From positions 64,001 through 128,000 of IMG/VR virus record IMGVR_UViG_3300037483_000594: 64,000 bases of DNA; one strand, written 5' to 3'. The notes beneath the pieces were generated by a model that was given only the letters and a program-made list of their open reading frames with translations, had not been told where the DNA came from and did no database searches. Shown here in pieces: positions 15,020-53,690 of this stretch (its first letter is position 1; each line of letters starts with the position of its first letter). The stretch comes from a virus. Both the position numbers and the translations under genes were made by a program.

Positions 15020-15447
15020 GGTTCATCCACATCCATCTTCTCGAAGGGGAGAGACCCGTGATCCGGGCACACCGGGGGGCTCCCGGGGCTGGGTTTGCCG
15101 CAGATAGGGCAGACCGCTCCCTCCGAGGCGAGCTTTTGCCCGGCGGGCTGCTCTTGTTGTTCGTAGCCGTACTTGTCCATTGTTTCTCCTTGAGCTGTGC
15201 AAGTATACCAGTTTTTTAACAGGTCGCGGTTGAAAGCTGTCTTGTTGTACGTTGCTCGGAAGAGCGCTTCTCCAGCGTGTAGCATGATGTTGTGGGTTTC
15301 GAGGAACCGTTGAATTTCGCGGGCTTCTTCGGCGTTGACGTGGACCGTGCCCAGTTCCTTGTCGCCGACTGAGAGTGTGAGCATGCTACCACCTTCTGAG
15401 GGTGTCAGCTTCATTGCAAACCGTGTCATCCCTTGGCCTCTCGCCAT
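15004..15447 (-). CDS. hypothetical protein with C-terminal Zn ribbon (may be translated separately from ATG 15180)
   Basis: CPICG...CPDHG; internal AAGGAG RBS before MDKYGY. Confidence 0.55.
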   Translation of the reverse strand: MARGQGMTRFAMKLTPSEGGSMLTLSVGDKELGTVHVNAEEAREIQRFLETHNIMLHAGEALFRATYNKTAFNRDLLKNWYTCTAQGETMDKYGYEQQEQPAGQKLASEGAVCPICGKPSPGSPPVCPDHGSLPFEKMDVDEPCEKK

Positions 15448-18400
15448 GTTTTGCCCCAGTGTGCCGGGGCGCGGAGTGGGACACTAAGGCGTAGCCCACA
15501 GTTTTCCATGTGCCACTGCACCCGGCCTGCGGCCTCTTCTTCCACGCCGCGCGGACAGCTCCCCAGGATCTCGTCGTGGATTTGCAGGAGCTGCTTGTAG
15601 CGCAGGGCGCGCAGGTGCTCGTCCCGCTGTATACCCAGCATGGCCAACATGCAGACATCTGCCGCAGTGTTTTTGCTGATGACGCCTTCGGAATCGAAGC
15701 GATGGCTTTCGTCGGAGACTGAGAGGGTGTAGGTCTCCGCGACCACTCCGAGTGCTACTGTCGCAACTACTTCTGCTGTGGCGTAGAGTTCGAGCTCCAC
15801 TTCGTATTTCTTGGCAAGTTTGTTTAGTGTGTAGACGCTGACATTGCCTCCGCGGCGCATTCGGCTAAGAAGCGTTTGGTCGCTGCCTCTCTCTAGCACT
15901 CGGCCGTCGACATCTGCGATGAACTTTTTTACTGCAAATGCCGGGGCGCGGTCCCTTACTATTTCACGATTGGAGTGTCCGTAGCTCAGTGCGGCTAGGT
16001 GAGCTCGGTTGAAATCCAGTCGCCAAGAGGTATGCTCGTGACGGTGGTAGGGTCCGTGCAATCTGGATTCGACTCCGACCGTGCGGCTGAGGATCTGAAC
16101 CTCTTCAAGTAGCGTTTTGTTGCACATGTGTAGATTGGGACGCGCGCAGGTTACACAGCCGTCTGCGTCAAGCAACCCCAGCAGGAATTGGGTGCGTCCG
16201 TTCAATGATGCCGACCAGACTGCAGTTGGAATGGACTTTTCGTGAGAGCTGGCCCCCCACGGGTAGCCCAGGTTCTTGAGGTGGTCTTTGAACTGCACCG
16301 ATTGTGTTGTTATGGCGATTTTATGTTTGTAAACACGCGGTTTTTGATGGGTCAGACCAAGTTGGCACAGGAAATCTATGTACTTTTGAGCTTGCTCCTC
16401 TTTTTTGTGTCGATGTTTCCTGTCTCCGAACGTTACGGAAACAGCGTTTTGTTGAGTTGCGCCGTGACGAGTGCAGCCATTTCCAAGAAGGAAGCCAAGC
16501 CAGTACGCGTCGGTGGGGGCTACGGTGCTGGTGTCGGGGAGATCGATGCCTTGTGCGAGGCTTAGACAAACACGAGTTCCGGGGCGCAATGTTGACCAGT
16601 GTTGAAAGACGTAACCGGTATCCGTTGCTACCAGCACCTCATGCCTGGTGTCGCAGTGGAGCACCTGTCCGGTGCTCAGTGAGATTGTTGCGAGTTCATG
16701 GGGGCCCCGGCTTAGCCGTCGGTACTCTGCCCAGCGATGCCCGGTCCAGGCCAGCCCACGTTCTGGGATCGTGCCTATAGGAAGCAACCCCTTACTGGTG
16801 AACACCCTGGTGCACGCTGGCAAGCAGCCTTGGATTTTTGTGTTCACAGCGCGGCGTTCCTCTTTCCGGCTTGCTGTGCAGCGGTCACACCAGCACAGCT
16901 CTCGTCCGCGCTTTGCTGCGGCGGCCGCGTGGTCAAGCATGGTCTCGTAGTCAAGGATGTCCGGGAGCATCCTCTGTCGGCCGAGCCGCGTTTCGACGAA
17001 ACGCTGTTCGTAGGCCTGGCGGATGGTGGTCTGGATGAACCTGTGTGCCCCGGGGAGCCCGGCGAAGAACAGGTCGATCTTCTCCTGTGCTTTTTGTCTA
17101 GCCCAGCGCTCGCACCGAGCTGCGTCCCACTCAGGATGCTGGGTGGCAGCCTCGATGTGATATTTCAGTTGGATACCCAACGAGCGGGCGGCCTTTCCGT
17201 AGACGATGCCGAAGCATACGGCCTTGATGTCTCCGCGGCGTTCCGTAAGGAGCTTCTCCCTGGCGTCCAACGGCTTTTTCTCCTCCTTTTTCTTTTTGGC
17301 AACGATGGACTCCTCGTAGGGGTCCCCGTAGATGGTCTCAACGTTGGCGCAGTGGATGTCTTTGTTCAGGATGATCGCGGAGAGGAGGTTCTTGTCCTGG
17401 GAGTAGTCCCCCAGGATGTACATCTCGAGTTGCTCGTAGTCGTCTACGATCAACGACTCGTCATCGTCGGCTATGAAAACTGAGCGCACGTCTACGAACT
17501 CGCTGGCTTCTTTTTGTGCGTTTTGGAGGTTCGGGTCCGACGAGCTCAGCCGTGAGGTCTCTACCTTGTGCTGGTTCAGATTTGTGTGGATTTTGCCCCG
17601 GTGCACGCGCTCAAGCATGCCGTCGACATAGGTGCCGAGCACCTTTTGTAGCTTTGCGTAGTCCGCGATCAAGGTGGCTGTCTCGCAGCCTTGCGCGGCG
17701 AGGGCTTTGTAGGCCTCCTTGTTCATCTTGAACTGACCAGTGGCTGTTTTGCCGATGTTGTCGTAGCCCGCCTCCGTGAAGAAGTAGGTGGCTAGCTGCT
17801 TGGGAGAGGAGAGGTTGATGGGGCGGCCCACTTGCTTTATCACCTCTTTTTCGACCGCCCTCTGCTTTTCCTCGATGAGCGGTCGCCTCGACTGCAGGTA
17901 CTGGACATCGGCGCGCACTCCCTCACGCTCCATCTCGTAGAGCGTTCGGGTCATGGGGACCTCGAAGTTGATGAAGACGTGCCACAGGCTGTAGCCGTGG
18001 CTGGTGTACCGTGCGCGCAGGTCGTGGCGTAGCCTGTAGAACACGCGGAGAGCCCCCCAGGCGTCCATAGAAGCGTAGTTGATGACAGCGCCGGGGTCCT
18101 CAACGAACTTGTCCTTGAGGATCTCGTACAGCGCCTTCTTGGGGGGCCTGCGCGCCTTGCCGTCAGGTCCGACGGGAAAGAACGTGTGTGCAAAGCTCTT
18201 CATGTACTCTCCGAAGAGCCGGGAGTACACGTCCTTCAACCCATGGAGCTGTCGAGGGTCCAGCAGGCGGTCCATGGTCAGTGTGCACAGCAGGTCTCCG
18301 GAGAGTGGGTGCCCGCTGTTGGCTAGGATGTGAGCGTCGTACTTGACCTGGGAGCCTATCCACGCCCTGTACTTGTCGGTGAACACCTCAGCAAAGTAAG

Positions 18401-18611
18401 GGAGCATGTTGGCTTCCAGGAAAAAGCGTTCGTGTTTGGAGTACGCCATAGACCAGAAGACAACCGTGTCCGTGGCGATGTTCAACCCGGTTGTCTCTGT
18501 GTCTATGGAGATTAAGGGCGCGCGCTTCAACTTTATGCAGAGCTCCCCGGCCTGTTCTTCTGTCTTGATGTGAACAGGCTCGGGGATGCTCAGGTTGATG
18601 ATGGTTTTCAT
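15426..18611 (-). CDS. polA: family A DNA polymerase with 3'-5' exonuclease and one intein
   Basis: DTETTG (ExoI), RLSSSDPNLQN, DYEQLE (motif A), K...FGIVYG (motif B), QIHDE (motif C). Confidence 0.95.
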   Translation of the reverse strand: MKTIINLSIPEPVHIKTEEQAGELCIKLKRAPLISIDTETTGLNIATDTVVFWSMAYSKHERFFLEANMLPYFAEVFTDKYRAWIGSQVKYDAHILANSGHPLSGDLLCTLTMDRLLDPRQLHGLKDVYSRLFGEYMKSFAHTFFPVGPDGKARRPPKKALYEILKDKFVEDPGAVINYASMDAWGALRVFYRLRHDLRARYTSHGYSLWHVFINFEVPMTRTLYEMEREGVRADVQYLQSRRPLIEEKQRAVEKEVIKQVGRPINLSSPKQLATYFFTEAGYDNIGKTATGQFKMNKEAYKALAAQGCETATLIADYAKLQKVLGTYVDGMLERVHRGKIHTNLNQHKVETSRLSSSDPNLQNAQKEASEFVDVRSVFIADDDESLIVDDYEQLEMYILGDYSQDKNLLSAIILNKDIHCANVETIYGDPYEESIVAKKKKEEKKPLDAREKLLTERRGDIKAVCFGIVYGKAARSLGIQLKYHIEAATQHPEWDAARCERWARQKAQEKIDLFFAGLPGAHRFIQTTIRQAYEQRFVETRLGRQRMLPDILDYETMLDHAAAAAKRGRELCWCDRCTASRKEERRAVNTKIQGCLPACTRVFTSKGLLPIGTIPERGLAWTGHRWAEYRRLSRGPHELATISLSTGQVLHCDTRHEVLVATDTGYVFQHWSTLRPGTRVCLSLAQGIDLPDTSTVAPTDAYWLGFLLGNGCTRHGATQQNAVSVTFGDRKHRHKKEEQAQKYIDFLCQLGLTHQKPRVYKHKIAITTQSVQFKDHLKNLGYPWGASSHEKSIPTAVWSASLNGRTQFLLGLLDADGCVTCARPNLHMCNKTLLEEVQILSRTVGVESRLHGPYHRHEHTSWRLDFNRAHLAALSYGHSNREIVRDRAPAFAVKKFIADVDGRVLERGSDQTLLSRMRRGGNVSVYTLNKLAKKYEVELELYATAEVVATVALGVVAETYTLSVSDESHRFDSEGVISKNTAADVCMLAMLGIQRDEHLRALRYKQLLQIHDEILGSCPRGVEEEAAGRVQWHMENCGLRLSVPLRAPAHWGKTWREAKG
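15669..16826 (-). mobile_element. intein with LAGLIDADG homing endonuclease in PolA (386 aa)
   Basis: KIQG|CLPA...ISKN|TAAD junctions; LGFLLGNG and LLGLLDADG motifs. Confidence 0.9.
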
Positions 18612-36280: not shown

Positions 36281-39200
36281 ATGGCACGTCTCGACCCAGG
36301 GGAAACTTTTGAAGCGCTGAAGGGGGAGGTCACCAAGGCGATAAAGTCGCAGTTTCCGCAAGTGGGGTCGCAGCACGTTCTTGAGCTGCGCGATGTCGTG
36401 GTGGACGACAACGTCTCGTCGGACGAGGTTTCCACACAGGCCGCAGCGAAGCTAGACGGCAAAACGTTTGGTGTGCCCATAAAAGCGTCTTTGGTCCTCA
36501 GGGACAAGGCGTCCGGAAAGGTGCTCGACGAGCGTGTGCAACGGGTAGGCACCCTTCCGAAGATCACCAGCCGCTACTCTTGGATAGTCCGGGGCACAGA
36601 GTACCAGGTAGACAACCAGTTCAGGCTGCGCCCGGGCGTGTACACGACGGTCCACAAAGACGGAGGGCTCGAGAGCTTCTTGAACTTCGAGGGTATCCCC
36701 CTTCACATAAAGTTTGACCCCAAGTCCAAGAAGTTTGCGGTGAAACACAAGACCGCTTCTCCGCCTCTGTACCCTGTGATGCGTGCACTGGGGTTTTCGG
36801 ATGAACAGTTGCGGGATGCCTGGGGCAAGGAGATCTTGGCGGCGAACCAAGTGGACACCTCCGGGCGCCCTCTGCAGGTGGACAAACGGGCCATGGACTT
36901 CGCCCGAAAGCTCGTCCCTGCCGCAGAGGTGAACACGCTGGCCGAGGCTTCACGAGCCATTAAGACGTACCTCGGTGCCAAGACGTTGCACCCGGACGTG
37001 ACCGAGAAGACGTTGGGAGCTCGGTACGACACCATCACCCCCGACGTCTTTCGAGCCTCAACGGAGCGGCTGCTTGGGATAGCGCGCGGAGAGCAAAAAC
37101 CGGACACCCGTGACGCCCTGCACTTCAAGGAGCTGAACGGTGTCGAGGACCTGTTGTCAGAGCGGCTCGCGAAGAACGCCAAGATGAACGCGCGCCGGAT
37201 AGCCAACAACCTCGACAAGAAGACGGAGATTCGCCAGATCGTTGGGACGGGGCACTTTAACAGCCAGCTACACGGCTTTTTTGCCGACTCAACATTGGCG
37301 TCGCTGGCCCAGCAGACGAACCCCCTCCGCATGATCGATGGGCACACCCGCACCACCATCATGGGAGAGGGTGGGATCAAAAGCGCGAACGCCGTCACCG
37401 ATGAGGCAAAGCTTGTGGACCCCAGTCACTTTGGGGTGCTCGACCCCCTCGTGACTCCCGAGAGCGGGAAGGCCGGGGTCTCGTTGCAGCTCGCCATCGG
37501 CGCCAAGAAGGACGGAAAGACACTCGCCGTTCCCCTCATCAACGTGAAGACCGGGAAGGTCGAGTTCGTCAACACGGCCAAGGTAAACGACGTTGTGGTG
37601 GCCATGCCCGACGCCGTTACCTTCTCGCAAGGAAAGTTGGTGGCCAAGGACGGCGGGTCCACTGTCCGGGCGAGTGTCAAGGACAACGAGTTCCGGGAGG
37701 TCCCTCTCCGGGAAGTGCAGTACGTGGCCCCCAAGGCTACCCAGATGTTCTCCTTGTCGTCGAACTTGGTGCCGTTCCTGGCGTCGAACTCTCCGAACCG
37801 GGCTTCCATGAGCGGGAGGCACCAGGAGCAGGCGATCAGCTTGAAGTACCGGGAGCCCCCCCTGGTGCGCTCGGCCCTTGGGGACAAGAGCTTTGGGGAG
37901 ATCCTGGGGCAGTTCGCCGCGCAGCACTCTCCTGTCTCCGGAGAGGTGGTGGCTGTGGAGCCTGGGCTGATGAAGATCAAAGGCCCTGACGGAGTGAAAG
38001 AGGTACAGCTCTACAACCACTACCCGCTCAACGACAAGAAAGGCCAGTTGCACTCCACCCCCTCCGTGAAGGTAGGGGACAAGGTCAAGGCCGGGCAGCT
38101 CATCGCTGACACGAACTTCAGCGCTGACGGAATCTACGCCCCCGGGAAAAACCTGCAGGTTGCCTACCTACCATGGGGCGGCCAAAGTGTTAGCGGGGAT
38201 ACGTACGTTTATTGGGTTGACTCGCAGGGCGGGCACTTTGGACCAATCGGTAATATGCCGGCGCAGGGGGAAGTGTACGCCAACGTTCTGGATTCAGAAT
38301 CTGTAGAGGGCCGGTTGCATCGTGTTCACAGTTTTATAGGTCATTACACCGCCGAGCCTATGTTTGAAATCAAGATGTTAGAGCCGTTTCGAGTTAAAGC
38401 AACCGCATGTCACAGTTTTATTACAATTGATGAGACAGGGGGCTTTGTAAACATTACACCGGCCAAGATGATACCGCGAAAAACACTCTTGCCTGTTGTA
38501 CAGCCGACGTTGCGCTTCAGTAGTCAAATAGGGCAGATGTTTTGTAAATCAAAAACTGCTGGTGGTATTTCTGTGTCATTTCCTATGGATAAAGACGCGG
38601 GGTACGTTTTTGGTGTTTACACAGCAGAGGGGTGCTCCCTGGGAGGAACTAGGGGGTGTAAAGGACTTAGTATCTCGGTTACTGAGGGGGACCTATTAGA
38701 GCGATTAGAAAGTATTTTAGACAAGTGGGGTGTTAGCCATTCACGACGTTTGCGTGGGGTAAACATACACAATTCCGCAGTCGGCCGCATTGTTACAGAC
38801 GCCTGCGGCTGTCTTGCGCAATTTAAAAAGATACCCGACTTGCTGTGGTCTCAACATCCAGATTTTATTGATGGATTTTTGGACGGGTACTGGAGTGGCG
38901 ACGGTACTTGTTCTGATAAGCAGTTTACTGCGTCGACTGTATCTCGAGAACTGGCGGAGGGGTTGATATTTTTACTTGCGGCACGAGGAGTTAAGGCGCG
39001 GTACAGAACGTACAAGATCCCAGGACATCAAGACCAAAACCTGATAAATGTTTACAGAGAAACACTTGATAAATTTCCAGCACTGAGTTCTGGTCGAAAA
39101 GAACTTCTTCGACAGGAGTTAATAGCCAAGGGTACTGAGCACGGGCGGGATCGAATTCCTATCCCCGAGGCGTATCGCGACGAAGTAAAAAAAGCGCTGC

Positions 39201-42200
39201 GGAGCGTAGGAAGAGCGCTGGGGGGCAGCCCTTACGCTGCACGTCGTGTTTTGAAGCAAGTGCGAGAGCTACTGCCAGAAACGGTACGTCGGTTTGTTGA
39301 TGCTCCGATTTGGTGGGAAGTAGTTGACACGGTCAAGGAAGTGGAGCCGGAGGAGTACGTTTACGATTTGGATATGCGGCCGTTCGGCAATTTTATTGTG
39401 GGGCCCGGTCTTGTTGTACACAACACGTACGAAGACGGGGTGGTGATAAGCGAAGACGCAGCCCAAAAGTTGACGTCCACCCACCTGTACAAGAGCAAGC
39501 TCTCGACGCGTGACGCGCGCGTCGAGCCTGCCAAGCGGTACAAGAGCATCTTTGGGGCTACGATCCCGGCGGAGCGCATGGCAGGCTTGGGGGAAGACGG
39601 GGTAGTGCGGGAAGGGACGATGGTCAAGCCCGGAGATGTTCTCGTGGCGGGCTCTGCAGACCGCGTGTTCACTACCGAAGAGCAGAAGCTGCGTGCGATC
39701 CAGAAGTCCCTCGTGCCCACGAAGCGAAACGCTGCGGTGACGTGGGACGCCGAACACCCAGGGAAGGTCGTGGCCGTGCACCGCGGAAAGAGCGGGGTGG
39801 AGGTGCATGTCGAAACCGAGGAGCCTGCGCAGGTGGGTGACAAGATCAGCTCACACCACGCCGCCAAGGGCATCATCTCCGCGGTCTTGCCGTCTGCGGA
39901 GATGCCCCAGCGCCCGGACGGGAGCCCGATCGACATCGTCATGAACCCGGTTGGCACCGCCGGGCGTCTTAACGTTGGGCAGATCCTGGAAACCGCCGCG
40001 GCCAAGGTCGCGGAGAAGACCGGCAAGCCGTTCATCATCAAAAACTTCGAGACCGAGGATAACCACGGTCTCGTCGCAAAAGCACTGAAGGAGCACGGGC
40101 TCTCCGACACCGAGAACCTGATTGACCCCACCACGGGGAACACCATTCCGGGCATCCTTACGGGGCCGCAGTACATCATCAAGCTGGAGCACCAGGTCGA
40201 CAAGAAGATGAGCTCGAGGGACCGCGGTGCCTACGACCGAAACCTTATTCCGAAGGGCGGCGGGCACGACGGAGGGCAGGCCTTCGGAGCTCTGGGGACC
40301 TACGCACTCCTGAGCCACGGGGCGCGCGGAAAGATCCAGGAGGCGCAGACGCTGCTCTCGGACAAGGGGCAGGGTGGGCTGAACGACGAGTTGTGGGGTG
40401 CTATCCAGTCGGGGGAGCTTATCCCGCCTCCGAAAGCCACGTTTGCCACCAAGAAGTTCGAGGGCTACCTTCGCGGGCTCGGGGTCAACGTCGAGCAGGA
40501 CGGTAACCGGCTCTCGTTGATGCCTGTCACTGACGCGCAGACCCTGGCGCTCTCGAGCGGTGAGCTGCAAGACGCCGGGCGTACCGTGATCGTCAAGAAC
40601 AACCAGCTTGTTCCGGAGAAGGGCGGGCTCTTCGACAAGCGGGCCACTGGCGGGCTGGACGGTCAGAAGTGGGGGCATATCACCCTGGCGAAGCCCATGC
40701 CCAACCCGCTGTTCGAGTCCGGGATAAGGAGCCTCACGGGACTCAAGACCACCGAGTACCAGCAGCTCATCTCCGGAGAGCTTGGGGTAAGCCAGAGCGG
40801 GGCACTGGTCCCCGCGGACACGCGCGGGGCCGAGACAGGGCCCTCGGCTGTGGTGAAGCTCCTCGACAAAGTGGACGTGAAACGCGCACTGCAAGAGGAA
40901 GAAGGCCGCATCGGCGGTCTTCGTGGCCAAAAGCAGAATGAGGTTCGGAAGAAGATAAAGTACCTCAGGGCGCTGGACCGTCTGAAGCTTTCTCCAGCGG
41001 ATGCCTATACCACAAGGCACGTGCCTATTCTGCCGCCATCAATGCGCCCTGTGGCGCTTACCGAAGACGGGAAGCTGCAAAACGACGACCTGAACTACCT
41101 TTACCGCGATCTCGCGGTGCTCAATGACCAGGTGAAGAAGATCCCCGCGGACATGCCCAAGTCTTTGGTGCAAGACAAAGAGGCCTACCTGTACGACAGT
41201 CTCCGCGCCCTCACCGGGCTTGGGGGTACGGTCAACGACAAGTACCCCGGGCTCCTTCACCGGATAGCTGGAAAGACCTCTCCCAAACAGGGGTTCTTCC
41301 AGAACGTGCTGATGAAGCGTAAGCAGGACCTCTCGGGGCGCTCGACTATCATCCCGGACCCCACCTTGTCCTTGGACGAGGTAGGGCTTCCCATCGACAT
41401 GGCGCGCGTCATCTACAAGCCCTTTGTGGTTCGGGAGATGAAAAACTCGCTTGGGCTCAGCCCCCTGGCCGCAAAGAAGCTGATCGACGAGGACGACCCG
41501 CTTGCCCGGAAGGCGCTCGAGCGCGTTGTTTCCGAACGCCCTATCATGCTCAAGCGGGACCCCGCCCTGCACAAACACAGCGTGCAGGGGTTCAAGCCCA
41601 AACTGATTAAAGGGAGCGCCATCAAAATCCCACCGCTGGTCACCAGTGGCTTCAACGCCGATTTTGACGGTGACCAGTGCATCGGTGCTGTTGTTTTGTT
41701 CCTTGAAAGAGATGTATTCAATTATGATATATGCTATTGGACACCAAGGAGGATTACTTTGACAGCGCGGATGCGAGAGCAGATTGGTTATTGTGATGCG
41801 GACGGAGAGTTTGTTGTCTGTGACCTATCGGAAGTGCCCCACGCGGAGGAGTGTGTAACGAAGGGGCACATTGACTATCATCCTGTGTCGGGGGTTAGCG
41901 TGCTCACTCTTGACCCGACGAAGGGGGCATGTTTCGCGGAGGTGACGGGGTGGTCTTATCATCGGCAACGCTCGGTGGAGATAGTCACTCTTGCTAGCGG
42001 GCGGCAGATCGTTACAGACGATGACCCAAGGGCTGTGTTTGGCGTGGATGCTTCGTCGTTGGAGTGGTGTCGGCGTCGTCCGCGTGAGAGTGCAGACCAG
42101 TTTGTGCCTGTTTTGGACGAAGTTCCTGCGTCCTTTACCGAGTTGACAGCGCTCGCGCTACCAAGAGACAAGTCCGGGCGGATGAAGCCAGAGGTGCTTC

Positions 42201-45200
42201 TTGACGCTAAGTTTGGTTACTTTCTGGGTTGTTTGGTGGGGGACGGCTGGGTCACGGGTGATGAGACACTGCGGTTCACATGTATGGCCAGCAGCTTTCC
42301 GGAGGTGCTTGGTACGTGGGAGCGGTCTGCGTCATGCCTTTTCTCAGAGAATCCGCACTTCAGCGAGCAGTACTGCTGTGAGGGGACCTTCGAGAACTCA
42401 AAGGGGACTACGCGCGCAACTATTTCTTCGGTAGCGTTGGCTACGTTTCTGCAGCCACTTATCGGTCATGGCGCGCGCAATAAGCACCTCCCTCCGTTTT
42501 TCTTGTCGGCCCCTGAATCTTTCCGTGTTGGTCTTTTGGCTGGGTTGATGGACACAGACGGCTCGATGTCATGGTCGATGGCAAAAGGCAAGGCGCAGTT
42601 TATGTGCAGTGTTAGCTCCACCAGCATAAGGCTGCTACAGGAAACTCAGCATCTTCTCCGCACGCTTGGAATCACCGCGAGTATCACCACTACCACCACG
42701 CCAAAGGGAGCTGCGTCATGGGTGCTGTCTATCTCTTCTGTGGGGTTGTACGAGCACAGGCGTAAACTTGCTCGACCGGCGCACAGTGGGAAACGCGCTG
42801 TGTGGGAGGAGTTCTGTGCTGGGGACGGCCCGGCTTCCGGAGGTGCTTTTTCACGGTACCGGCTCGTACCGCTACCTTCCAAGCTTGCTGCCAGCCTGCG
42901 GAAGATTGTCACGGTGAACGAGGACCGCAGCGTGTACATGACGCTGTCCAAGGCGATCGATCGGCAGTACATGTCGAAGCTGCTGGCCGAAAAGACTGTT
43001 CGGATGGTGAACGAACGTGGAGGGTGTGCACACCCCTTCTACGCGCGCTGGGCACGGCTGGTCGAAACTCCTGGGATGCACTTTGAGCGTGTTGTGGACG
43101 TGCAGCAGACGAACATTCTAGAGGACGGGTATGACCTAACCGTCCCGGGCTACGAGACCTTTATGGCAGTAGACGGCGTTGTGCTGTCCAACACAATGTC
43201 GGCTTACGTGCCGGTGACCGAAAAGGCTGTTCAGGAAGCGTGGCAGATGATGCCGTCGAACAACCTGTTCAGCCCGGCTTCCGGGAAGCTGATGTACGCA
43301 CCCACCAACGAGATGCAGGTAGGGCTGTACATGGCCACCGAGGTCGGGAAGGACACGGACAAGAAGTTTGCTTCCCTCTCGGAGCTGCGACGGGCAGTGA
43401 ACTCCGGAAAGCTCCACGGGACCGATGTGGTCACGTTGAACGGGCAGCGCACCACCTTCCACCGCGCGGAACTCGTAGACGCACTTCCGGAGCAGGCGCG
43501 GGAGGGGAACAAGCACCTCCTCACGGACCTTGGGTACAGGCTGACCAAGGCCAAGCAAGGCGCGCTGTTCGAGTCGATGGCGCACTCTGGGGCCGACGGC
43601 AAAGAGTTCGGGGCGGCGATAAACGCCGTCAAGGACCTTGGGAACAAGGTGGTGAGCACAGGGGGCTTCTCGTTCGGGCTCAAAGACATCGCTCCTCAGA
43701 AGGCGCTGCGGGCCGCAGCCTTTGCCGATGCGGACAAGGCTGTCGCACAACTGCGTGGTGTCGAACGTGAGGAGAAGATCGTCGACCTCTACTCCAAGGC
43801 GACCACCGCGCTCGAGAAGGACGTGCAGCAGATGGCGCAAGAACGCGCGTCTGAGTCTGCACTGGCCAAGCTGCAGGTAGCTGCCGGGATCAAGGGGAAC
43901 GGTTACAGGCAGCTCGTGGCGGCCCCCGGGCTCTTCGTGGACGGGCTAGGGAGGGTAGTGCCCTCTCCGGTCAAGCGCTCTTACGCGGAGGGGCTGAAGA
44001 GCAGCGACTACTACGTCAGCACCTCTGGGGCGCGGAAGGGCATAATCCAGAAGGTACAGAGCGTGCGCGACCCAGGGTACCTCACCAAGCTCATGGTGAA
44101 CTCCACCATTTCCGAGATGGTGGACAGGGAGGACTGCGGCACCCATTACGGTATCTCCCTGTCCGTGGACGAACCGGATGTGCAAGGGCGCTTCACGGTG
44201 GTTGACCACAAGCTCAGCAACGGCTCGGTCATCCCCGCCGGCACCTTGCTCGACAGCTCTATTGTGACCCGGATACGCAACGACAAGCCCGGGGCCAAAC
44301 TGGTGGTGCGTTCTCCCATGCGATGCACTCACACCACTGGGCTCTGCGCAAAGTGCGCCGGGCTGCAGGCGGACGGGAAGCTTCCGGAAAAGGGCACCAA
44401 CATTGGTATCTTGGCTGCCCAGGCCCTTGGAGAACGTGGAACACAGCTAGCTCTGAAGTCCTTTCACTGTTCGCACGCCAAGACGTTGGTGGTCGTCTGC
44501 AGGCGGGATGACCAAACAGTCAGGGCTATGACACTCGAGGAACTCTACGAGAAGGCGGTCAACCCTGTGGCGGAGGGTTGGCTGATCTACGACGGGGCGT
44601 GGCAGGAGCTCTCCGCGGTGAGCAGGCACCGCCCAACCGACCGTATGATGTTTGTGAGCTGCTCCAGTGTGGCGACGGTCTGCCAGGACAATCATCCCCT
44701 GGCGACCTACGAAAACAGGGTTTCTTGCGAGAAGTGTGGTTACCACCGGCTGAAGAAACCAGGGGCGAACGCTTCCATAAAAAACGGCAAGTTGTACTGC
44801 CCAAAGTGCTTTACCTACCAATACCCTATGGTCCCGGCGGAGGGGGAGGTGAAGTTCCTTGCACCTCAAGAGGTGGAGTGCAAGCGTGTGTACTTGCAGC
44901 GCTGTCTCGACCTCCCGGTTTCTTGTGTTAGAAAAACACCGTGGCTTGATCCGTACCTCGCTGGTATGTACGTGGCAGAGGGGAGTCTGGGGTATGTAGC
45001 AACTGCCTCGGGGGTGAAGAAACCGTACTTCGTCACTATCAGTCAGAACCGCGGGGCCGTGCGCGACAAACTGGAGCAGAAGCTGCCCCCTGAGTGGTGT
45101 GCCAAGCTTGGGGGGCGTGGCGTTGTGATTAACAGAGTCGCGCTCGGTGAGCGACTTGAAACAACGTTCGGCCGCTACTCGCGAAACGTGGCGCTGCCCT

Positions 45201-46387
45201 CCGACTTCCTAGCCTACGAACAGGGGTGGCTCGCCGAGTTCTTGTGTGGGCTGATCGATGGGGACGGGACGATCAAGCCTGACAAGGACGGGGCGCAGCG
45301 TATCGCGATCGACACGACAAGTTTTGCGCTGGCGCAACAGGTCGTGTTTATCTGTTCTCTGTTGAACATCGTGCCTTCTGTCCTGGCTACGTCACACCGA
45401 AAGCTGACCAGACATCAGGGTTTCCGTGTTGTGCTGCGGGTGACAGCGGCAGTGAAAGACTTGTTGAAAGAATCCATAAAGGTCCAGAGTGTGGAGAAAC
45501 TGAGCCCGGACCAGGACTTTCAGAGAACAGGGCGCACGCTGCTCTCGACCAAAAAAGAGGTGTTGTACACAGACGAGTACGTCTACGACGTCACGACCTC
45601 TTCCGGTACGTTTCTCGCGGGTGGGGTGCTCAGTCACAACAGCGGGGGTGTTTACTCCCCTACGGACATGACCTCTTTGGCTGGGAGCGGGATCGAGAGA
45701 GCCATGACGCTCCTTCAGCTTCCGAAGACGGTGAAGGGCTCGGCCACCCTTTCCACGGTCGGGGGTGTGGTGCGAAAGGTCGAGAGGGACGCTGCCGGCG
45801 GGGTCAACATTTTTGTGGACGACGGAAAGGGCCTGCGAAAGCACTACGTGCCCGCGGGTCGCAAGCTCCTGGGCTCGGTTGGAGGGAAGGTGCGCCCCGG
45901 AGACCCCCTTTCTTCAGGGCCGGTGAACCCGCACGACCTGTTGCCGCTTGCCGGGGTAGCACGCACCCAGGGGTTCCTGGCAAACGAGCTGCACAGCATC
46001 TACGGGAAAGAGGGCGTCAGGCGTCGGCACTCCGAGGTTCTGGTGAGGGCTGTGAGCTCGGTGGCGAGGGTAGAGGACCCCGGAGATCACGCGACTCTTC
46101 TTCCGGGGGACTACGTGGACACGAACGCCACGGCGCAGTGGAACGACAAGCACAGGGGCAAGGCGCCTGTGCAGTACACTCCCGTGGTGCGTGGAGTCGA
46201 GCAGCTTCCGCTTGACGTGAGCGAGGACTGGTTGGCCCGCCTGAACCATGAGCGCGGAAGAAAGACCATTATCGAGGCTGCGCAACAAAACTGGTCCACG
46301 GACCTGCACGGTCGGCACCCTATTCCCGGACTTATCTATGGTGTAGAATTCGGAAAAGGAACGAAAGACAAACCCTGGCACTACTAG
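36281..46387 (+). CDS. rpoBC: fused beta-beta' (two-barrel) DNA-directed RNA polymerase with three inteins
   Basis: TPES, GDK...H..KG, KL.H.V..K..R (beta); KxQDLSGRS, RDPALH, NADFDGD, GARKG, GYLTK, AAQALGERGTQL (beta'). Confidence 0.95.
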   Translation: MARLDPGETFEALKGEVTKAIKSQFPQVGSQHVLELRDVVVDDNVSSDEVSTQAAAKLDGKTFGVPIKASLVLRDKASGKVLDERVQRVGTLPKITSRYSWIVRGTEYQVDNQFRLRPGVYTTVHKDGGLESFLNFEGIPLHIKFDPKSKKFAVKHKTASPPLYPVMRALGFSDEQLRDAWGKEILAANQVDTSGRPLQVDKRAMDFARKLVPAAEVNTLAEASRAIKTYLGAKTLHPDVTEKTLGARYDTITPDVFRASTERLLGIARGEQKPDTRDALHFKELNGVEDLLSERLAKNAKMNARRIANNLDKKTEIRQIVGTGHFNSQLHGFFADSTLASLAQQTNPLRMIDGHTRTTIMGEGGIKSANAVTDEAKLVDPSHFGVLDPLVTPESGKAGVSLQLAIGAKKDGKTLAVPLINVKTGKVEFVNTAKVNDVVVAMPDAVTFSQGKLVAKDGGSTVRASVKDNEFREVPLREVQYVAPKATQMFSLSSNLVPFLASNSPNRASMSGRHQEQAISLKYREPPLVRSALGDKSFGEILGQFAAQHSPVSGEVVAVEPGLMKIKGPDGVKEVQLYNHYPLNDKKGQLHSTPSVKVGDKVKAGQLIADTNFSADGIYAPGKNLQVAYLPWGGQSVSGDTYVYWVDSQGGHFGPIGNMPAQGEVYANVLDSESVEGRLHRVHSFIGHYTAEPMFEIKMLEPFRVKATACHSFITIDETGGFVNITPAKMIPRKTLLPVVQPTLRFSSQIGQMFCKSKTAGGISVSFPMDKDAGYVFGVYTAEGCSLGGTRGCKGLSISVTEGDLLERLESILDKWGVSHSRRLRGVNIHNSAVGRIVTDACGCLAQFKKIPDLLWSQHPDFIDGFLDGYWSGDGTCSDKQFTASTVSRELAEGLIFLLAARGVKARYRTYKIPGHQDQNLINVYRETLDKFPALSSGRKELLRQELIAKGTEHGRDRIPIPEAYRDEVKKALRSVGRALGGSPYAARRVLKQVRELLPETVRRFVDAPIWWEVVDTVKEVEPEEYVYDLDMRPFGNFIVGPGLVVHNTYEDGVVISEDAAQKLTSTHLYKSKLSTRDARVEPAKRYKSIFGATIPAERMAGLGEDGVVREGTMVKPGDVLVAGSADRVFTTEEQKLRAIQKSLVPTKRNAAVTWDAEHPGKVVAVHRGKSGVEVHVETEEPAQVGDKISSHHAAKGIISAVLPSAEMPQRPDGSPIDIVMNPVGTAGRLNVGQILETAAAKVAEKTGKPFIIKNFETEDNHGLVAKALKEHGLSDTENLIDPTTGNTIPGILTGPQYIIKLEHQVDKKMSSRDRGAYDRNLIPKGGGHDGGQAFGALGTYALLSHGARGKIQEAQTLLSDKGQGGLNDELWGAIQSGELIPPPKATFATKKFEGYLRGLGVNVEQDGNRLSLMPVTDAQTLALSSGELQDAGRTVIVKNNQLVPEKGGLFDKRATGGLDGQKWGHITLAKPMPNPLFESGIRSLTGLKTTEYQQLISGELGVSQSGALVPADTRGAETGPSAVVKLLDKVDVKRALQEEEGRIGGLRGQKQNEVRKKIKYLRALDRLKLSPADAYTTRHVPILPPSMRPVALTEDGKLQNDDLNYLYRDLAVLNDQVKKIPADMPKSLVQDKEAYLYDSLRALTGLGGTVNDKYPGLLHRIAGKTSPKQGFFQNVLMKRKQDLSGRSTIIPDPTLSLDEVGLPIDMARVIYKPFVVREMKNSLGLSPLAAKKLIDEDDPLARKALERVVSERPIMLKRDPALHKHSVQGFKPKLIKGSAIKIPPLVTSGFNADFDGDQCIGAVVLFLERDVFNYDICYWTPRRITLTARMREQIGYCDADGEFVVCDLSEVPHAEECVTKGHIDYHPVSGVSVLTLDPTKGACFAEVTGWSYHRQRSVEIVTLASGRQIVTDDDPRAVFGVDASSLEWCRRRPRESADQFVPVLDEVPASFTELTALALPRDKSGRMKPEVLLDAKFGYFLGCLVGDGWVTGDETLRFTCMASSFPEVLGTWERSASCLFSENPHFSEQYCCEGTFENSKGTTRATISSVALATFLQPLIGHGARNKHLPPFFLSAPESFRVGLLAGLMDTDGSMSWSMAKGKAQFMCSVSSTSIRLLQETQHLLRTLGITASITTTTTPKGAASWVLSISSVGLYEHRRKLARPAHSGKRAVWEEFCAGDGPASGGAFSRYRLVPLPSKLAASLRKIVTVNEDRSVYMTLSKAIDRQYMSKLLAEKTVRMVNERGGCAHPFYARWARLVETPGMHFERVVDVQQTNILEDGYDLTVPGYETFMAVDGVVLSNTMSAYVPVTEKAVQEAWQMMPSNNLFSPASGKLMYAPTNEMQVGLYMATEVGKDTDKKFASLSELRRAVNSGKLHGTDVVTLNGQRTTFHRAELVDALPEQAREGNKHLLTDLGYRLTKAKQGALFESMAHSGADGKEFGAAINAVKDLGNKVVSTGGFSFGLKDIAPQKALRAAAFADADKAVAQLRGVEREEKIVDLYSKATTALEKDVQQMAQERASESALAKLQVAAGIKGNGYRQLVAAPGLFVDGLGRVVPSPVKRSYAEGLKSSDYYVSTSGARKGIIQKVQSVRDPGYLTKLMVNSTISEMVDREDCGTHYGISLSVDEPDVQGRFTVVDHKLSNGSVIPAGTLLDSSIVTRIRNDKPGAKLVVRSPMRCTHTTGLCAKCAGLQADGKLPEKGTNIGILAAQALGERGTQLALKSFHCSHAKTLVVVCRRDDQTVRAMTLEELYEKAVNPVAEGWLIYDGAWQELSAVSRHRPTDRMMFVSCSSVATVCQDNHPLATYENRVSCEKCGYHRLKKPGANASIKNGKLYCPKCFTYQYPMVPAEGEVKFLAPQEVECKRVYLQRCLDLPVSCVRKTPWLDPYLAGMYVAEGSLGYVATASGVKKPYFVTISQNRGAVRDKLEQKLPPEWCAKLGGRGVVINRVALGERLETTFGRYSRNVALPSDFLAYEQGWLAEFLCGLIDGDGTIKPDKDGAQRIAIDTTSFALAQQVVFICSLLNIVPSVLATSHRKLTRHQGFRVVLRVTAAVKDLLKESIKVQSVEKLSPDQDFQRTGRTLLSTKKEVLYTDEYVYDVTTSSGTFLAGGVLSHNSGGVYSPTDMTSLAGSGIERAMTLLQLPKTVKGSATLSTVGGVVRKVERDAAGGVNIFVDDGKGLRKHYVPAGRKLLGSVGGKVRPGDPLSSGPVNPHDLLPLAGVARTQGFLANELHSIYGKEGVRRRHSEVLVRAVSSVARVEDPGDHATLLPGDYVDTNATAQWNDKHRGKAPVQYTPVVRGVEQLPLDVSEDWLARLNHERGRKTIIEAAQQNWSTDLHGRHPIPGLIYGVEFGKGTKDKPWHY
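38186..39424 (+). mobile_element. intein 1 (LAGLIDADG, 413 aa) in the beta part
   Basis: PWGGQ|SVSG...VVHN|TYEDG; AT-richer than the flanks. Confidence 0.9.
41678..43192 (+). mobile_element. intein 2 (LAGLIDADG, about 505 aa) next to NADFDGD
   Basis: DGDQ|CIGA...VLSN|TMSAY; LAGLMDTDG. Confidence 0.85.
44468..45640 (+). mobile_element. intein 3 (LAGLIDADG + Zn ribbon, 391 aa) in the trigger loop
   Basis: KSFH|CSHA...LSHN|SGG; LCGLIDGDG. Confidence 0.9.
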
Positions 46388-51760: not shown

Positions 51761-51975
51761 TGCCATTCGTCTCGGAGAGTCAGCGCCGAAAGTTCTACGC
51801 CATGAAAGAGCGCGGAGAGGTCAGCGCAAAGGTCGTCAAGGAGTTCGAGAAGGGCTCCCCGGAGGACCTCCCGGAACGTGTGAAGACCGCTGCCTACTGC
51901 GAAGCCTACGGGCTCGAGCTGCTCAAGGGGGCAGCCCCCCGCTGGAAACAGCTTCTCCGTGGCAAGGAGATCTGA
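51757..51975 (+). CDS. small K-x-A protein
   Basis: MPF.S..QRR N-terminus; VKTAA. Confidence 0.65.
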   Translation: MMPFVSESQRRKFYAMKERGEVSAKVVKEFEKGSPEDLPERVKTAAYCEAYGLELLKGAAPRWKQLLRGKEI

Positions 51976-52499
51976 TGCGCGCGCTTCTGGTGCAGGGGGG
52001 AGCACTCGCTGACACGCTCCTGAAGCTTGCGGAGAAGCCTCTCCGTGAGCGCGTAGAGGTGTACGCTCTCAAAGACGGAAAGGTCCTGGCCGGCATCTAT
52101 CCGGACGGGTCAGTGGGTGTGCCTGGGGGAGGGGTGTCCTCCGGGGAGTCCCCCGAGCACGCGGCAAAGCGGGAGTACAAGGAAGAGGCAGGCCTGACCG
52201 TCAAGAACCTGCAGCCCCTTCCCGTGCCCCCACTTGTTGAAAAGTGGGAGAAGCGGAAGGACCTCACCGACAAGGAGAAGGAGCGGCGCAAGGAGTTCTC
52301 CGGGTCGCGCACTCACTTCTACATAGCCGACCTTTCCGGAAAAGGCGGGAAGGCGGTGGACCCCTCCGCGTTGAAGAGGCTCGTTCCGCGTTCGGTAGCG
52401 GCTCTTGTCGACAAGCTGCAAGAGCAAGCCGACTCCGGGAAGAAGCGGGACAAGGTACGCCTCAAGGTACTCGAGACTGTCCAGGAGTTAACCAGCTAA
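51975..52499 (+). CDS. Nudix hydrolase with K-x-A leader
   Basis: GGGVSSGESPEHAAKREYKEEAG Nudix box. Confidence 0.9.
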   Translation: MRALLVQGGALADTLLKLAEKPLRERVEVYALKDGKVLAGIYPDGSVGVPGGGVSSGESPEHAAKREYKEEAGLTVKNLQPLPVPPLVEKWEKRKDLTDKEKERRKEFSGSRTHFYIADLSGKGGKAVDPSALKRLVPRSVAALVDKLQEQADSGKKRDKVRLKVLETVQELTS

Positions 52500-52521
52500 A
52501 AAAGTGGGGGTTGCCCCCCAC
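52494..52521 (-). terminator. intrinsic terminator
   Basis: GTGGGGG-caa-CCCCCAC followed by TTTTTTAGC. Confidence 0.75.
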
Positions 52522-52529
52522 CGTGGCCG

Positions 52530-52760
52530 CTACTGCGGCCGAACCTCCTCCTCGCCGACGATGGTAGCGGTTCCGGTGCGGTCAAACCGCACCGTGGGGA
52601 TGCCGTCGTCGACTCCCTCGACGACGCCCACGTCCCCCGGTTCCGCGTGGATGTACGCGCCCTGGGGGAACTGGGCGTTGGGGTCTCCGGGGAGGCGACC
52701 GTTCTCGGTCACCTGCGCGGTGGCCATCAATCGCTGGCCCTTCTCAAACGGGTACGTCAT
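52530..52760 (-). CDS. small SH3/NifZ-like beta protein
   Basis: F..GQR..A...V..NG..PG......GDVGVV; GAAAGG RBS. Confidence 0.55.
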   Translation of the reverse strand: MTYPFEKGQRLMATAQVTENGRLPGDPNAQFPQGAYIHAEPGDVGVVEGVDDGIPTVRFDRTGTATIVGEEEVRPQ

Positions 52761-52771
52761 GCCTTTCCTTT

Positions 52772-52802
52772 CTAGCAAAAAGTGATGGGAGTTTCCCACC
52801 AC
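52772..52802 (-). terminator. terminator after the tRNA-like RNA
   Basis: GTGGTGGGA-aac-TCCCATCAC followed by TTTTT. Confidence 0.7.
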
Positions 52803-52805
52803 TAG

Positions 52806-52874
52806 AGCCGAGACCTGGGCTTGCACCAGGATCTCCTCCTCAACGGAGGCGGGTTACCTTAACCCCATCTCGGC
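52806..52874 (-). tRNA. aberrant tRNA: full cloverleaf with a 5-nt anticodon loop
   Basis: GCCGAGA/TCTCGGC; GGGT-taaggta-ACCC; CCTCC-gttga-GGAGG; CCTGG-tgcaagc-CCAGG; 3' T-CTA. Confidence 0.7.
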
Positions 52875-52904: not shown

Positions 52905-53222
52905 CTAGTACTTGGACAGAACCTGCCCCACGGTCCAGCGGGGGTCGTGGGACACGGCGACTACGTACCCCTGGCACTTGGGGTCGTAGATCGCCGTTGC
53001 GCCGAACCGGTGCACCAAGAAGTGCACCAGTACGGCGCAGACAGGGAGGCTCATGGGCCCGCTTATGCGGACCAAGCCCCCGCCGATCTCGAGACCCTTC
53101 AAGGTCTCGTTCTCGAGCTCCGCCACGATCTGGGCGTTCGTGGCGGTCTCCCCGAAACCCACCGTCAGGTCGGTTACCTGATCGGTGGAGTGCGGCTCCC
53201 GCCGCACATGGAAAAGTGACAT
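52905..53222 (-). CDS. csx3: Csx3/Crn3-like cyclic oligoadenylate ring nuclease
   Basis: 105 aa after AGGAGGTG; V.ISG...L......H..H.......YDPK..GYVVAVSH.P...VG.V resembles the Csx3 pattern. Confidence 0.75.
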   Translation of the reverse strand: MSLFHVRREPHSTDQVTDLTVGFGETATNAQIVAELENETLKGLEIGGGLVRISGPMSLPVCAVLVHFLVHRFGATAIYDPKCQGYVVAVSHDPRWTVGQVLSKY

Positions 53223-53233
53223 TGTCACCTCCT

Positions 53234-53289
53234 TGGCGCAGGTGAGGGGGAGTCGAACCCCCTGACGCCGAAGCGTCTCCAACACCTGC
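53234..53289 (-). ncRNA. 56-nt mini tRNA-like RNA (no D stem, UUCG hairpin in place of the anticodon arm, G-CCA end)
   Basis: GCAGGTG/CACCTGC; GACGC-ttcg-GCGTC; AGGGGG-TTCGACT-CCCCCT; GCCA. Confidence 0.7.
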
Positions 53290-53486
53290 CCCAGGGTCAC
53301 GCCTTACCTGGATGGCGCTTCACTTTTTGTTTCCATCCAGAGTGTGAAGTCTCTGGACCGGGCTACTGCTCCACCAAAGAGAGGGCCGGGACAAAGGGCG
53401 CCGCTTCGCGCCGATTCGGACACCTCCTGCGGACCATGCGCTGCCCGTACCACGCAGAAGGCTGCGAGGGTTTCTTTGTACTCAGA

Positions 53487-53606
53487 TCAGCGCTTCCGCG
53501 CTGAGCGGAAGAACCCATAGGGGTCCTTCCCGGTTACGCCCTCGATCACGATGGCGAGAAGAACGCACACAGCCACAAGGGCGATGATGAGGAACAATGT
53601 TGTCAC
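53487..53606 (-). CDS. 39-aa membrane micropeptide (not in ORF track)
   Basis: GGAGGTG RBS; MTTLFLIIALVAVCVLLAIVIEGVTGKDPYGFFRSARKR. Confidence 0.6.
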   Translation of the reverse strand: MTTLFLIIALVAVCVLLAIVIEGVTGKDPYGFFRSARKR

Positions 53607-53619
53607 GCTACACCTCCAG

Positions 53620-53690
53620 TGCCCCTGGCAGGAATCGAACCTGCTCCTCCTGGGTGTAAACCAGGCGCTCGTCCTTCGAGCTACAGGGGC
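53620..53690 (-). tRNA. tRNA-Val(TAC), CCA not encoded
   Basis: GCCCCTG/CAGGGGC; anticodon arm CCTGG-TTTACAC-CCAGG; GCAGG-TTCGATT-CCTGC. Confidence 0.9.

Follow-up and report, generated by a model that had tools for sequence, protein, structure and literature searches.

What does a small stand-alone gene resembling csx3 do on a large phage, and is its product directed against the type III CRISPR immunity of the host? The gene in question lies in a 64,000-nucleotide window that spans bases 64001-128000 of a 170,135-bp IMG/VR virus record, which CheckV rates as 94% complete. A preliminary description, drawn from the letters of the window, had proposed a phage-encoded Csx3/Crn3-like ring nuclease and candidate anti-type III CRISPR protein at positions 52905-53222. 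The open reading frame was confirmed exactly. It runs on the minus strand from an ATG at 53222 through 105 codons to a stop at 52905-52907 (CDS 53222..52905) and encodes the 105-residue protein P0001, assigned as csx3/crn3-like from its translation, Pfam match, AlphaFold2 (AF2) model and fold match. A strong ribosome-binding site, AAGGAGGTG, can be read from the sequence 4 nt 5' of the ATG (53226..53234, minus strand). A longer frame starting from a GTG at 53300 was considered and rejected; it has no ribosome-binding site and would traverse a tRNA-like element, and the ATG start is preferred because of this crossing.

Sequence comparisons place P0001 in the Csx3 family. Residues 50-102 match Pfam PF09620 (Cas_csx3) with 31.1 bits (E 2.2e-7, gathering score 21), and this is the sole Pfam match at E ≤ 10, with no match to DUF1874 or any other family. 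The NCBIfam equivalog TIGR02579 gives 24.1 bits, under its cut-off of 55.4, and P0001 therefore represents a divergent branch of Csx3 relative to the archaeal-type model. When 1.8 billion cluster representatives were searched exhaustively with phmmer, 226 homologue clusters were obtained at E ≤ 1e-3, 83 of them at E ≤ 1e-10, the nearest being 51% identical. Most of these homologues are stand-alone proteins of about 100 amino acids while some are tandem or fused. The single source name obtained for the cluster of a close homologue, P0003, reads 'CRISPR-associated protein Csx3'. A single-sequence phmmer search of the PDB gave only a chance match (CHMP4B, E 0.06), so a homologue profile was needed. 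The profile of 70 homologues retrieved only chains of Csx3 from Archaeoglobus fulgidus (AfCsx3; 6YUD, 3WZG, 3WZH, 3WZI and 6VJG; E 1e-5), and the matches that follow stand at E 0.2. No PHROG family matches P0001, and a word-indexed protein search returned the query itself only. The alignment of 70 homologues has near-invariant columns at F23, G48, G55, H67, H71, D80, P81, K82, H92 and G99. The four motifs from which the Csx3 resemblance had originally been suspected are all present, and of their residues H67, H71, D80, P81, K82 and H92 are near-invariant in the family: ISG (residues 53-55), H-x-x-x-H (HFLVH, 67-71), YDP(K/R) (YDPK, 79-82) and VV..SH (VVAVSH, ending at H92). The resemblance of P0001 to Csx3 is far beyond chance.

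The predicted structure leads to the same family. An AlphaFold2 model of P0001, with the homologue alignment as input, has a pLDDT of 95.6 and a pTM of 0.86. A Foldseek search of the PDB with this model places AfCsx3 chains at the top (probability 1.0, TM 0.61-0.75). VIA-align superposes 91-93 of the 105 residues on AfCsx3 with an rmsd of 1.7-1.9 Å and Z scores of 12.5-13.1, followed by the cA4-binding domain of Cat1 (Z 9.6) and then by STAS domains (Z ~5). AfCsx3 thus leads by a wide margin, and the model has the Csx3 fold, a CARF-related, STAS-like alpha/beta fold; the relation of Csx3 to CARF-type and STAS folds seen in this ranking agrees with PMC12409355. No DUF1874 structure is among the fold matches listed by Foldseek and VIA-align, and no viral structure in BFVD matches the model below E 1e-3. 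Both the HMM and the structure search that the preliminary description had put forward as checks consequently came out in favor of Csx3, and P0001 almost certainly belongs to the Csx3 family and fold.

The positions needed for catalysis in AfCsx3 can be traced into P0001 through the HMM alignment, from which all residue equivalences were taken. AfCsx3 needs H60 and D69, its histidines H57, H60 and H80 are invariant, substitutions at R71 or H80 strongly impair it, and S44, G45, R46 and I49 contact cA4 (PMC7371418). In the cA4-binding loop S44 corresponds to S54, G45 to G55, R46 to P56 and I49 to L59. The first helix histidine, H57, corresponds to H67, the D-P-(R/K) loop residues D69 and R71 to D80 and K82, and the late S-H histidine, H80, to H92. 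The second helix histidine of P0001, H71, is equivalent to H60 or H61: HMMER pairs it with H61 and opens a one-residue gap immediately afterwards, and the histidine pair is spaced HxxxH (i/i+4) in P0001 versus HxxHH (H57/H60, i/i+3) in AfCsx3. Among 153 homologues H67 is conserved in 92%, H71 in 92%, D80 in 95% and H92 in 84%. The column of K82 holds lysine in 90% and arginine in 4%, and that of P56 holds proline in 65%. The changes R46P, R71K and HxxxH, which may bear on cA4 cleavage, are thus subfamily-wide and not phage-specific, being found in type III-linked bacterial members as well. Judged by its sequence, P0001 is an intact member of this subfamily with its catalytic positions kept or conservatively changed. 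The literature searched holds no characterized member of the DPK/HxxxH subfamily, and we therefore infer the activity of P0001 from AfCsx3 and M. mazei Csx3. On this basis P0001 probably has cA4 ring-nuclease activity.

The gene is carried by a large, lytic-type phage that encodes no type III system. The window contains genes for a family-A-type DNA polymerase, a DnaB-like helicase, a second helicase, a UvsX-like recombinase, a ligase and a tail-fibre-like protein, and a large terminase (TerL) gene (phrog_675, E 2e-47) lies 1 kb from csx3. Together with the completeness of the virus record, the terminase, polymerase, DnaB and UvsX genes bear out the initial claim that csx3 is phage-encoded. 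The nearest cultured-phage TerL proteins are only 24-26% identical and the phage lineage is therefore new. No IMG/VR relatives were found through its TerL, and a 15-kb part of the window had no megablast match among phage genomes. A genome-wide Pfam scan of the whole 170-kb record yields one Csx3 match, and the record contains no RAMP protein, no Cas10/Cmr2 gene and no CRISPR-like array, the last sought as repeated 18-mers at CRISPR-like spacing. The absence of cas genes and CRISPR arrays, first noted for the window, thus extends to the entire record as regards RAMP genes, Cas10/Cmr2 and array-like repeats. One criterion for a viral ring-nuclease anti-CRISPR is a virus without cOA-signalling genes of its own, and this is what is found here. 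Given that the phage csx3 has no type III association, it is a candidate Acr. Two other genes of the window have unusual architectures. A 3368-aa ORF (36281-46387, plus strand) has several RNA-polymerase beta/beta'-like PHROG matches and an endonuclease-like segment at residues 1980-2130 and looks like a fused giant RNA polymerase. A 1061-aa DNA polymerase (15426-18611, minus strand) carries an endonuclease-like segment (phrog_4645, residues 701-867) after its polymerase domain that could represent an intein, or a homing endonuclease inserted into or fused to the enzyme.

Locally, csx3 is part of a leftward unit wedged between two rightward genes encoding a NUDIX hydrolase and the terminase. 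The ORF list places a 137-aa ORF at 54146-53733 (minus strand). A tRNA-Val (TAC) gene lies 5' of the csx3 unit (53619..53690, minus strand; ARAGORN, Rfam tRNA 64.2 bits). Directly upstream of csx3 the sequence reveals a tRNA-like minihelix (53234..53289, minus strand) that scores 28.5 bits with the Rfam tRNA-Sec model, below the gathering score. In its 56 nt the element combines an acceptor stem of 7 bp, the hairpin GACGC-UUCG-GCGUC and a T arm containing GGTTCGACTCC, followed by a discriminator G and CCA. It has neither a D arm nor an anticodon arm and ARAGORN gives no call. The CCA overlaps the csx3 ribosome-binding site, and the minihelix may represent a processing signal for the csx3 transcript. 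Between the tRNA-Val and the minihelix, an ORF of about 39 aa (~53490-53606, minus strand), preceded by GGAGGTG, encodes a hydrophobic, single-pass-like peptide (VTTLFLIIALVAVCVLLAIV...). Downstream of csx3, the ORF list contains a small ORF (52530..52826, minus strand) of 98 aa from a GTG, which is preceded by GAGGAGG, or 76 aa from an internal ATG. Its product is a small beta-barrel whose Atlas structure resembles NifZ/NdhO-like small barrels (TM 0.73), it has no Pfam or PHROG match, and it is probably co-transcribed with csx3. Neither this ORF nor the 137-aa ORF received a function-informative Pfam, PHROG or Atlas assignment. A terminator-like hairpin with a T-run (52503..52522, minus strand), found by consensus scan only, closes the leftward unit. 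Some 400 bp past the end of csx3, and separated from it by the beta-barrel ORF, lies the oppositely oriented NUDIX hydrolase gene (51975-52499, plus strand; Pfam 42 bits), whose best PHROG is a portal-NUDIX fusion family.

Further copies are found in other viruses. Eleven additional IMG/VR records (12.6-155 kb) contain csx3 homologues 43-57% identical to P0001, a count that is a lower bound given that it comes from two IMG/VR scans with two short peptide patterns each. Including the present phage, at least 12 large uncultured phage genomes carry Crn3. In the 16-kb flanks of nine of the viral loci, no protein other than Csx3 is shared with the present phage, and eight of the nine, compared mutually, have mostly nothing in common beyond Csx3. 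None of the five csx3-carrying viral records that were scanned whole contains a RAMP gene. Two of the viral copies have, within a few kb, an anti-restriction gene for a DarB-like methyltransferase-helicase, and no Aca-like HTH gene was seen beside the viral copies tested. In a 133-row tree the viral copies fall in at least four places, with that of the present phage apart from the rest, at a support too weak to exclude a single origin. A tblastn search of 50,697 deposited phage records with P0001 and a second viral copy returned nothing.

Some viral copies depart from the canonical active site. Three (L005-L007) have lost both helix histidines (H67K, H71A) and a fourth (L026) carries H67A. In L005 the csx3 gene (L005:8004-8306, plus strand) is arranged back to back with a very distant Csx3-like gene (L005:7490-7903, minus strand; Pfam 24.1 bits) whose product has a Cys/His-rich tail, and such a pair recurs in L006, L007 and L009. 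The pair of a histidine-poor csx3 and a distant Csx3-like gene could act as a sponge or as a heteromeric split-site pair. On the 154-kb viral contig L009, the Csx3 ORF (L009:7965-8645, plus strand) is 226 aa long and continues for about 120 residues past the Csx3 domain, which may reflect a C-terminal fusion or read-through.

Cellular relatives of P0001 occur in type III loci and also in assemblies that yielded no RAMP gene. In Paludibaculum fermentans (L017) a homologue 39% identical to P0001 is encoded 0.7 kb upstream of cmr2(cas10)-cmr3-cmr4-cmr6, and an array with 37-nt repeats begins at the end of the locus. On plasmid NZ_CP151101 of Nostoc sp. UHCC 0302 the homologue WP_341531926, 46% identical and annotated 'CRISPR-associated protein Csx3', comes before a 310-aa Csx3 fusion and the genes cas10-csm2-csm3-csm4-csm5-cas6. 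The remaining plasmid matches to P0001 are cyanobacterial. Stand-alone homologues are also present in three candidate-phyla-radiation MAGs assigned to Saccharibacteria, Uhrbacteria and Patescibacteria (L011, L012 and L014). These three assemblies, which are incomplete and about 1 Mb each, yielded no RAMP-family gene at any position; the absence may be due to incompleteness, to prophages or to action in trans.

We propose a model for P0001 that follows AfCsx3. Cyclic tetra-adenylate (cA4) would be enclosed between dimers of P0001 stacked head to tail. S54-G55, L59, D80 and K82 would form the 'D face' of one dimer and H67, H71 and H92, with Mn2+, the 'His face' of the next, and the two faces together would cut cA4 to linear di-adenylates. 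In the infected cell P0001 would remove cA4, the second messenger from Cas10 of a host type III CRISPR system, and cA4 removal would keep effectors such as Csx1/Csm6, Can1/2, Cam1, CalpL and others switched off. What we infer by analogy in this model is how P0001 oligomerizes, that it is specific for cA4 and cleaves it, and that the phage benefits. A precedent in vivo comes from M. mazei Csx3, with which plasmid immunity mediated by Csx1 was partly relieved (PMC7371418). P0001 is likely a captured Crn3 with which the phage counters type III CRISPR signalling.

Other functions for P0001 can be considered on the same evidence. The protein could be a cA4 sponge that sequesters its ligand between stacked dimers and turns over little or none of it, in the way that Tad and Acb2 are sponges for other signals. 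The Csx3 mechanism already sandwiches cA4 in filaments (PMC7371418), the histidine-substituted copies in L005-L007 and L026 indicate that non-catalytic versions may be viable in phages, and the equivalents of R46 and R71 are altered in the P0001 subfamily. P0001 itself, however, retains both helix histidines, D80, K82 and H92, and the same residues are found in cellular type III-linked relatives, which need turnover, making a sponge an unlikely function for this copy. Alternatively, a ring nuclease might serve the phage-host pair, damping collateral cA4 toxicity so that host metabolism lasts through replication of the 170-kb genome, or acting on non-CRISPR cA4. The biochemical evidence for an anti-CRISPR enzyme applies equally to this role, and the three candidate-phyla-radiation genomes that carry a homologue but no RAMP gene in their assemblies indicate that linkage in cis to a type III locus is not strict in the Csx3 family. 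On the other hand, those assemblies are incomplete MAGs, the clearest cellular contexts are type III operons, and such a role is in practice hard to separate from an anti-CRISPR one; we consider it improbable.

The genomic surroundings suggest two further explanations. The position of csx3 just downstream of the CCA-ending minihelix and the tRNA-Val, on the same strand, would suit a Mn-dependent RNA deadenylase or 3'-end trimmer acting on the adjoining tRNA and mini-tRNA transcripts, and RNA deadenylation was the activity for which AfCsx3 was first described (Yan et al. 2015, as cited in PMC7371418). That reading of AfCsx3 was superseded by its cA4 ring-nuclease activity (PMC7371418), the tRNA context is absent from all other viral or cellular csx3 loci compared, and processing sites are a simpler explanation for tRNA-like elements beside phage genes. 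An RNA-processing enzyme is hence very unlikely. The gene could also be host DNA or an inert passenger, that is, a fragment of a type III locus that was mis-assembled or recently acquired and has no function in the phage. Its GC3 of 0.877 compares with 0.70 ± 0.085 for the genes of the phage, about 2 SD higher and at the 99th percentile; in a gene of 105 codons this gives no more than a hint of foreign origin or of strong codon bias. At the same time csx3 is one intact gene that has a strong ribosome-binding site of its own, the catalytic residues of its product are kept or conservatively changed, it sits between the NUDIX gene and the large terminase gene in a continuous 170-kb phage record, and no other cas gene accompanies it. 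With the nearest homologue only 51% identical, csx3 is not a piece recently taken from any sampled host. We regard an inert passenger as extremely improbable and retain a captured Crn3 directed against type III signalling as the preferred interpretation.

Viral ring nucleases reveal which host signals phages must silence and are useful for switching off cOA signalling. A 2025 survey with HMMs for Crn1-3, Csx15, Csx16 and Csx20 covered 28,114 cultured phage genomes and reported AcrIII-1/Crn2 in 36 phages, Csx20 in 4 and Csx16 in 2, with Crn3 unmentioned (PMC12409355). Crn4b is found in 11 phages (PMC12830947), and AcrIII-2, a viral SAVED ring nuclease, has been described as 'genetic scavenging' of a defence protein (PMC12751052). 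Our full-text literature searches found no report of Csx3 in a virus or phage. According to the eLife authors, the cooperative mechanism suits Crn3 to a cellular rather than a viral role, and a phage Crn3 would directly test this argument. It would also extend the theme of the scavenged host off-switch to the sole ring-nuclease family that needs a metal and a tetramer. The concept of viral ring nucleases as anti-CRISPRs is established, the Csx3 family is known and the same mechanism is expected; what is new is Csx3 on phages. As an anti-CRISPR, phage Csx3 is what a specialist would expect, yet it is unreported and cheaply testable, and P0001, with 105 aa and a confident model, is a compact candidate for an anti-type III CRISPR assay. 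Taking the viral copies together, we tentatively suggest, at slightly short of even odds, that Csx3/Crn3 constitutes a further, as yet unreported structural class of viral ring nuclease, metal-dependent and with a site split between stacked dimers, that was repeatedly acquired by unrelated large uncultured phages, some of which have histidine-less copies and a distant Csx3-like gene as possible cA4 sponges or heteromeric split-site enzymes.

Among characterized systems, P0001 is closest to AfCsx3 of the Crn3 family (AF_1864; PDB 3WZG/3WZI/6YUD/6VJG). The two proteins share the fold and the stand-alone size of about 105 aa, and both have two helix histidines, an aspartate and a basic residue in the D-P-(R/K) loop, a late S-H histidine and an S-G loop. 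They are only 22-24% identical and differ in the replacement of R46 by proline and R71 by lysine and in the spacing HxxxH versus HxxH. AfCsx3 is encoded in a CRISPR locus while P0001 is encoded by a phage without type III genes. The Nostoc (WP_341531926) and Paludibaculum (L017) proteins belong to the same DPK/HxxxH subfamily as P0001, are 39-46% identical to it, have a similar length and share all signature residues. Their genes are directly upstream of cas10/csm or cmr operons, where they presumably reset host immunity, in contrast to the phage gene with no cas neighbours.

The viral systems resemble P0001 in role rather than in fold. AcrIII-1/Crn2 (DUF1874) shares the predicted role of P0001 as a small phage protein that destroys cA4 to counter type III immunity (PMC7371418, PMC12409355), but its fold is unrelated and its mechanism is metal-independent and confined to a single dimer. 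From this difference the preliminary description had concluded that P0001 would be a host regulator captured as an anti-CRISPR. The idea holds insofar as Crn3 is not among the viral families reported so far; it is less singular than was implied, since AcrIII-2 (viral SAVED) and the phage-encoded Crn4b, Csx16 and Csx20 are precedents. As is proposed for P0001, all four are scavenged cellular cOA modules (PMC12751052; PMC12830947; PMC12409355), and they belong to families and folds (SAVED, CARF-like, Crn4) other than Csx3. AcrIII-2 has a composite active site formed between stacked subunits, as in Csx3 (PMC12751052).
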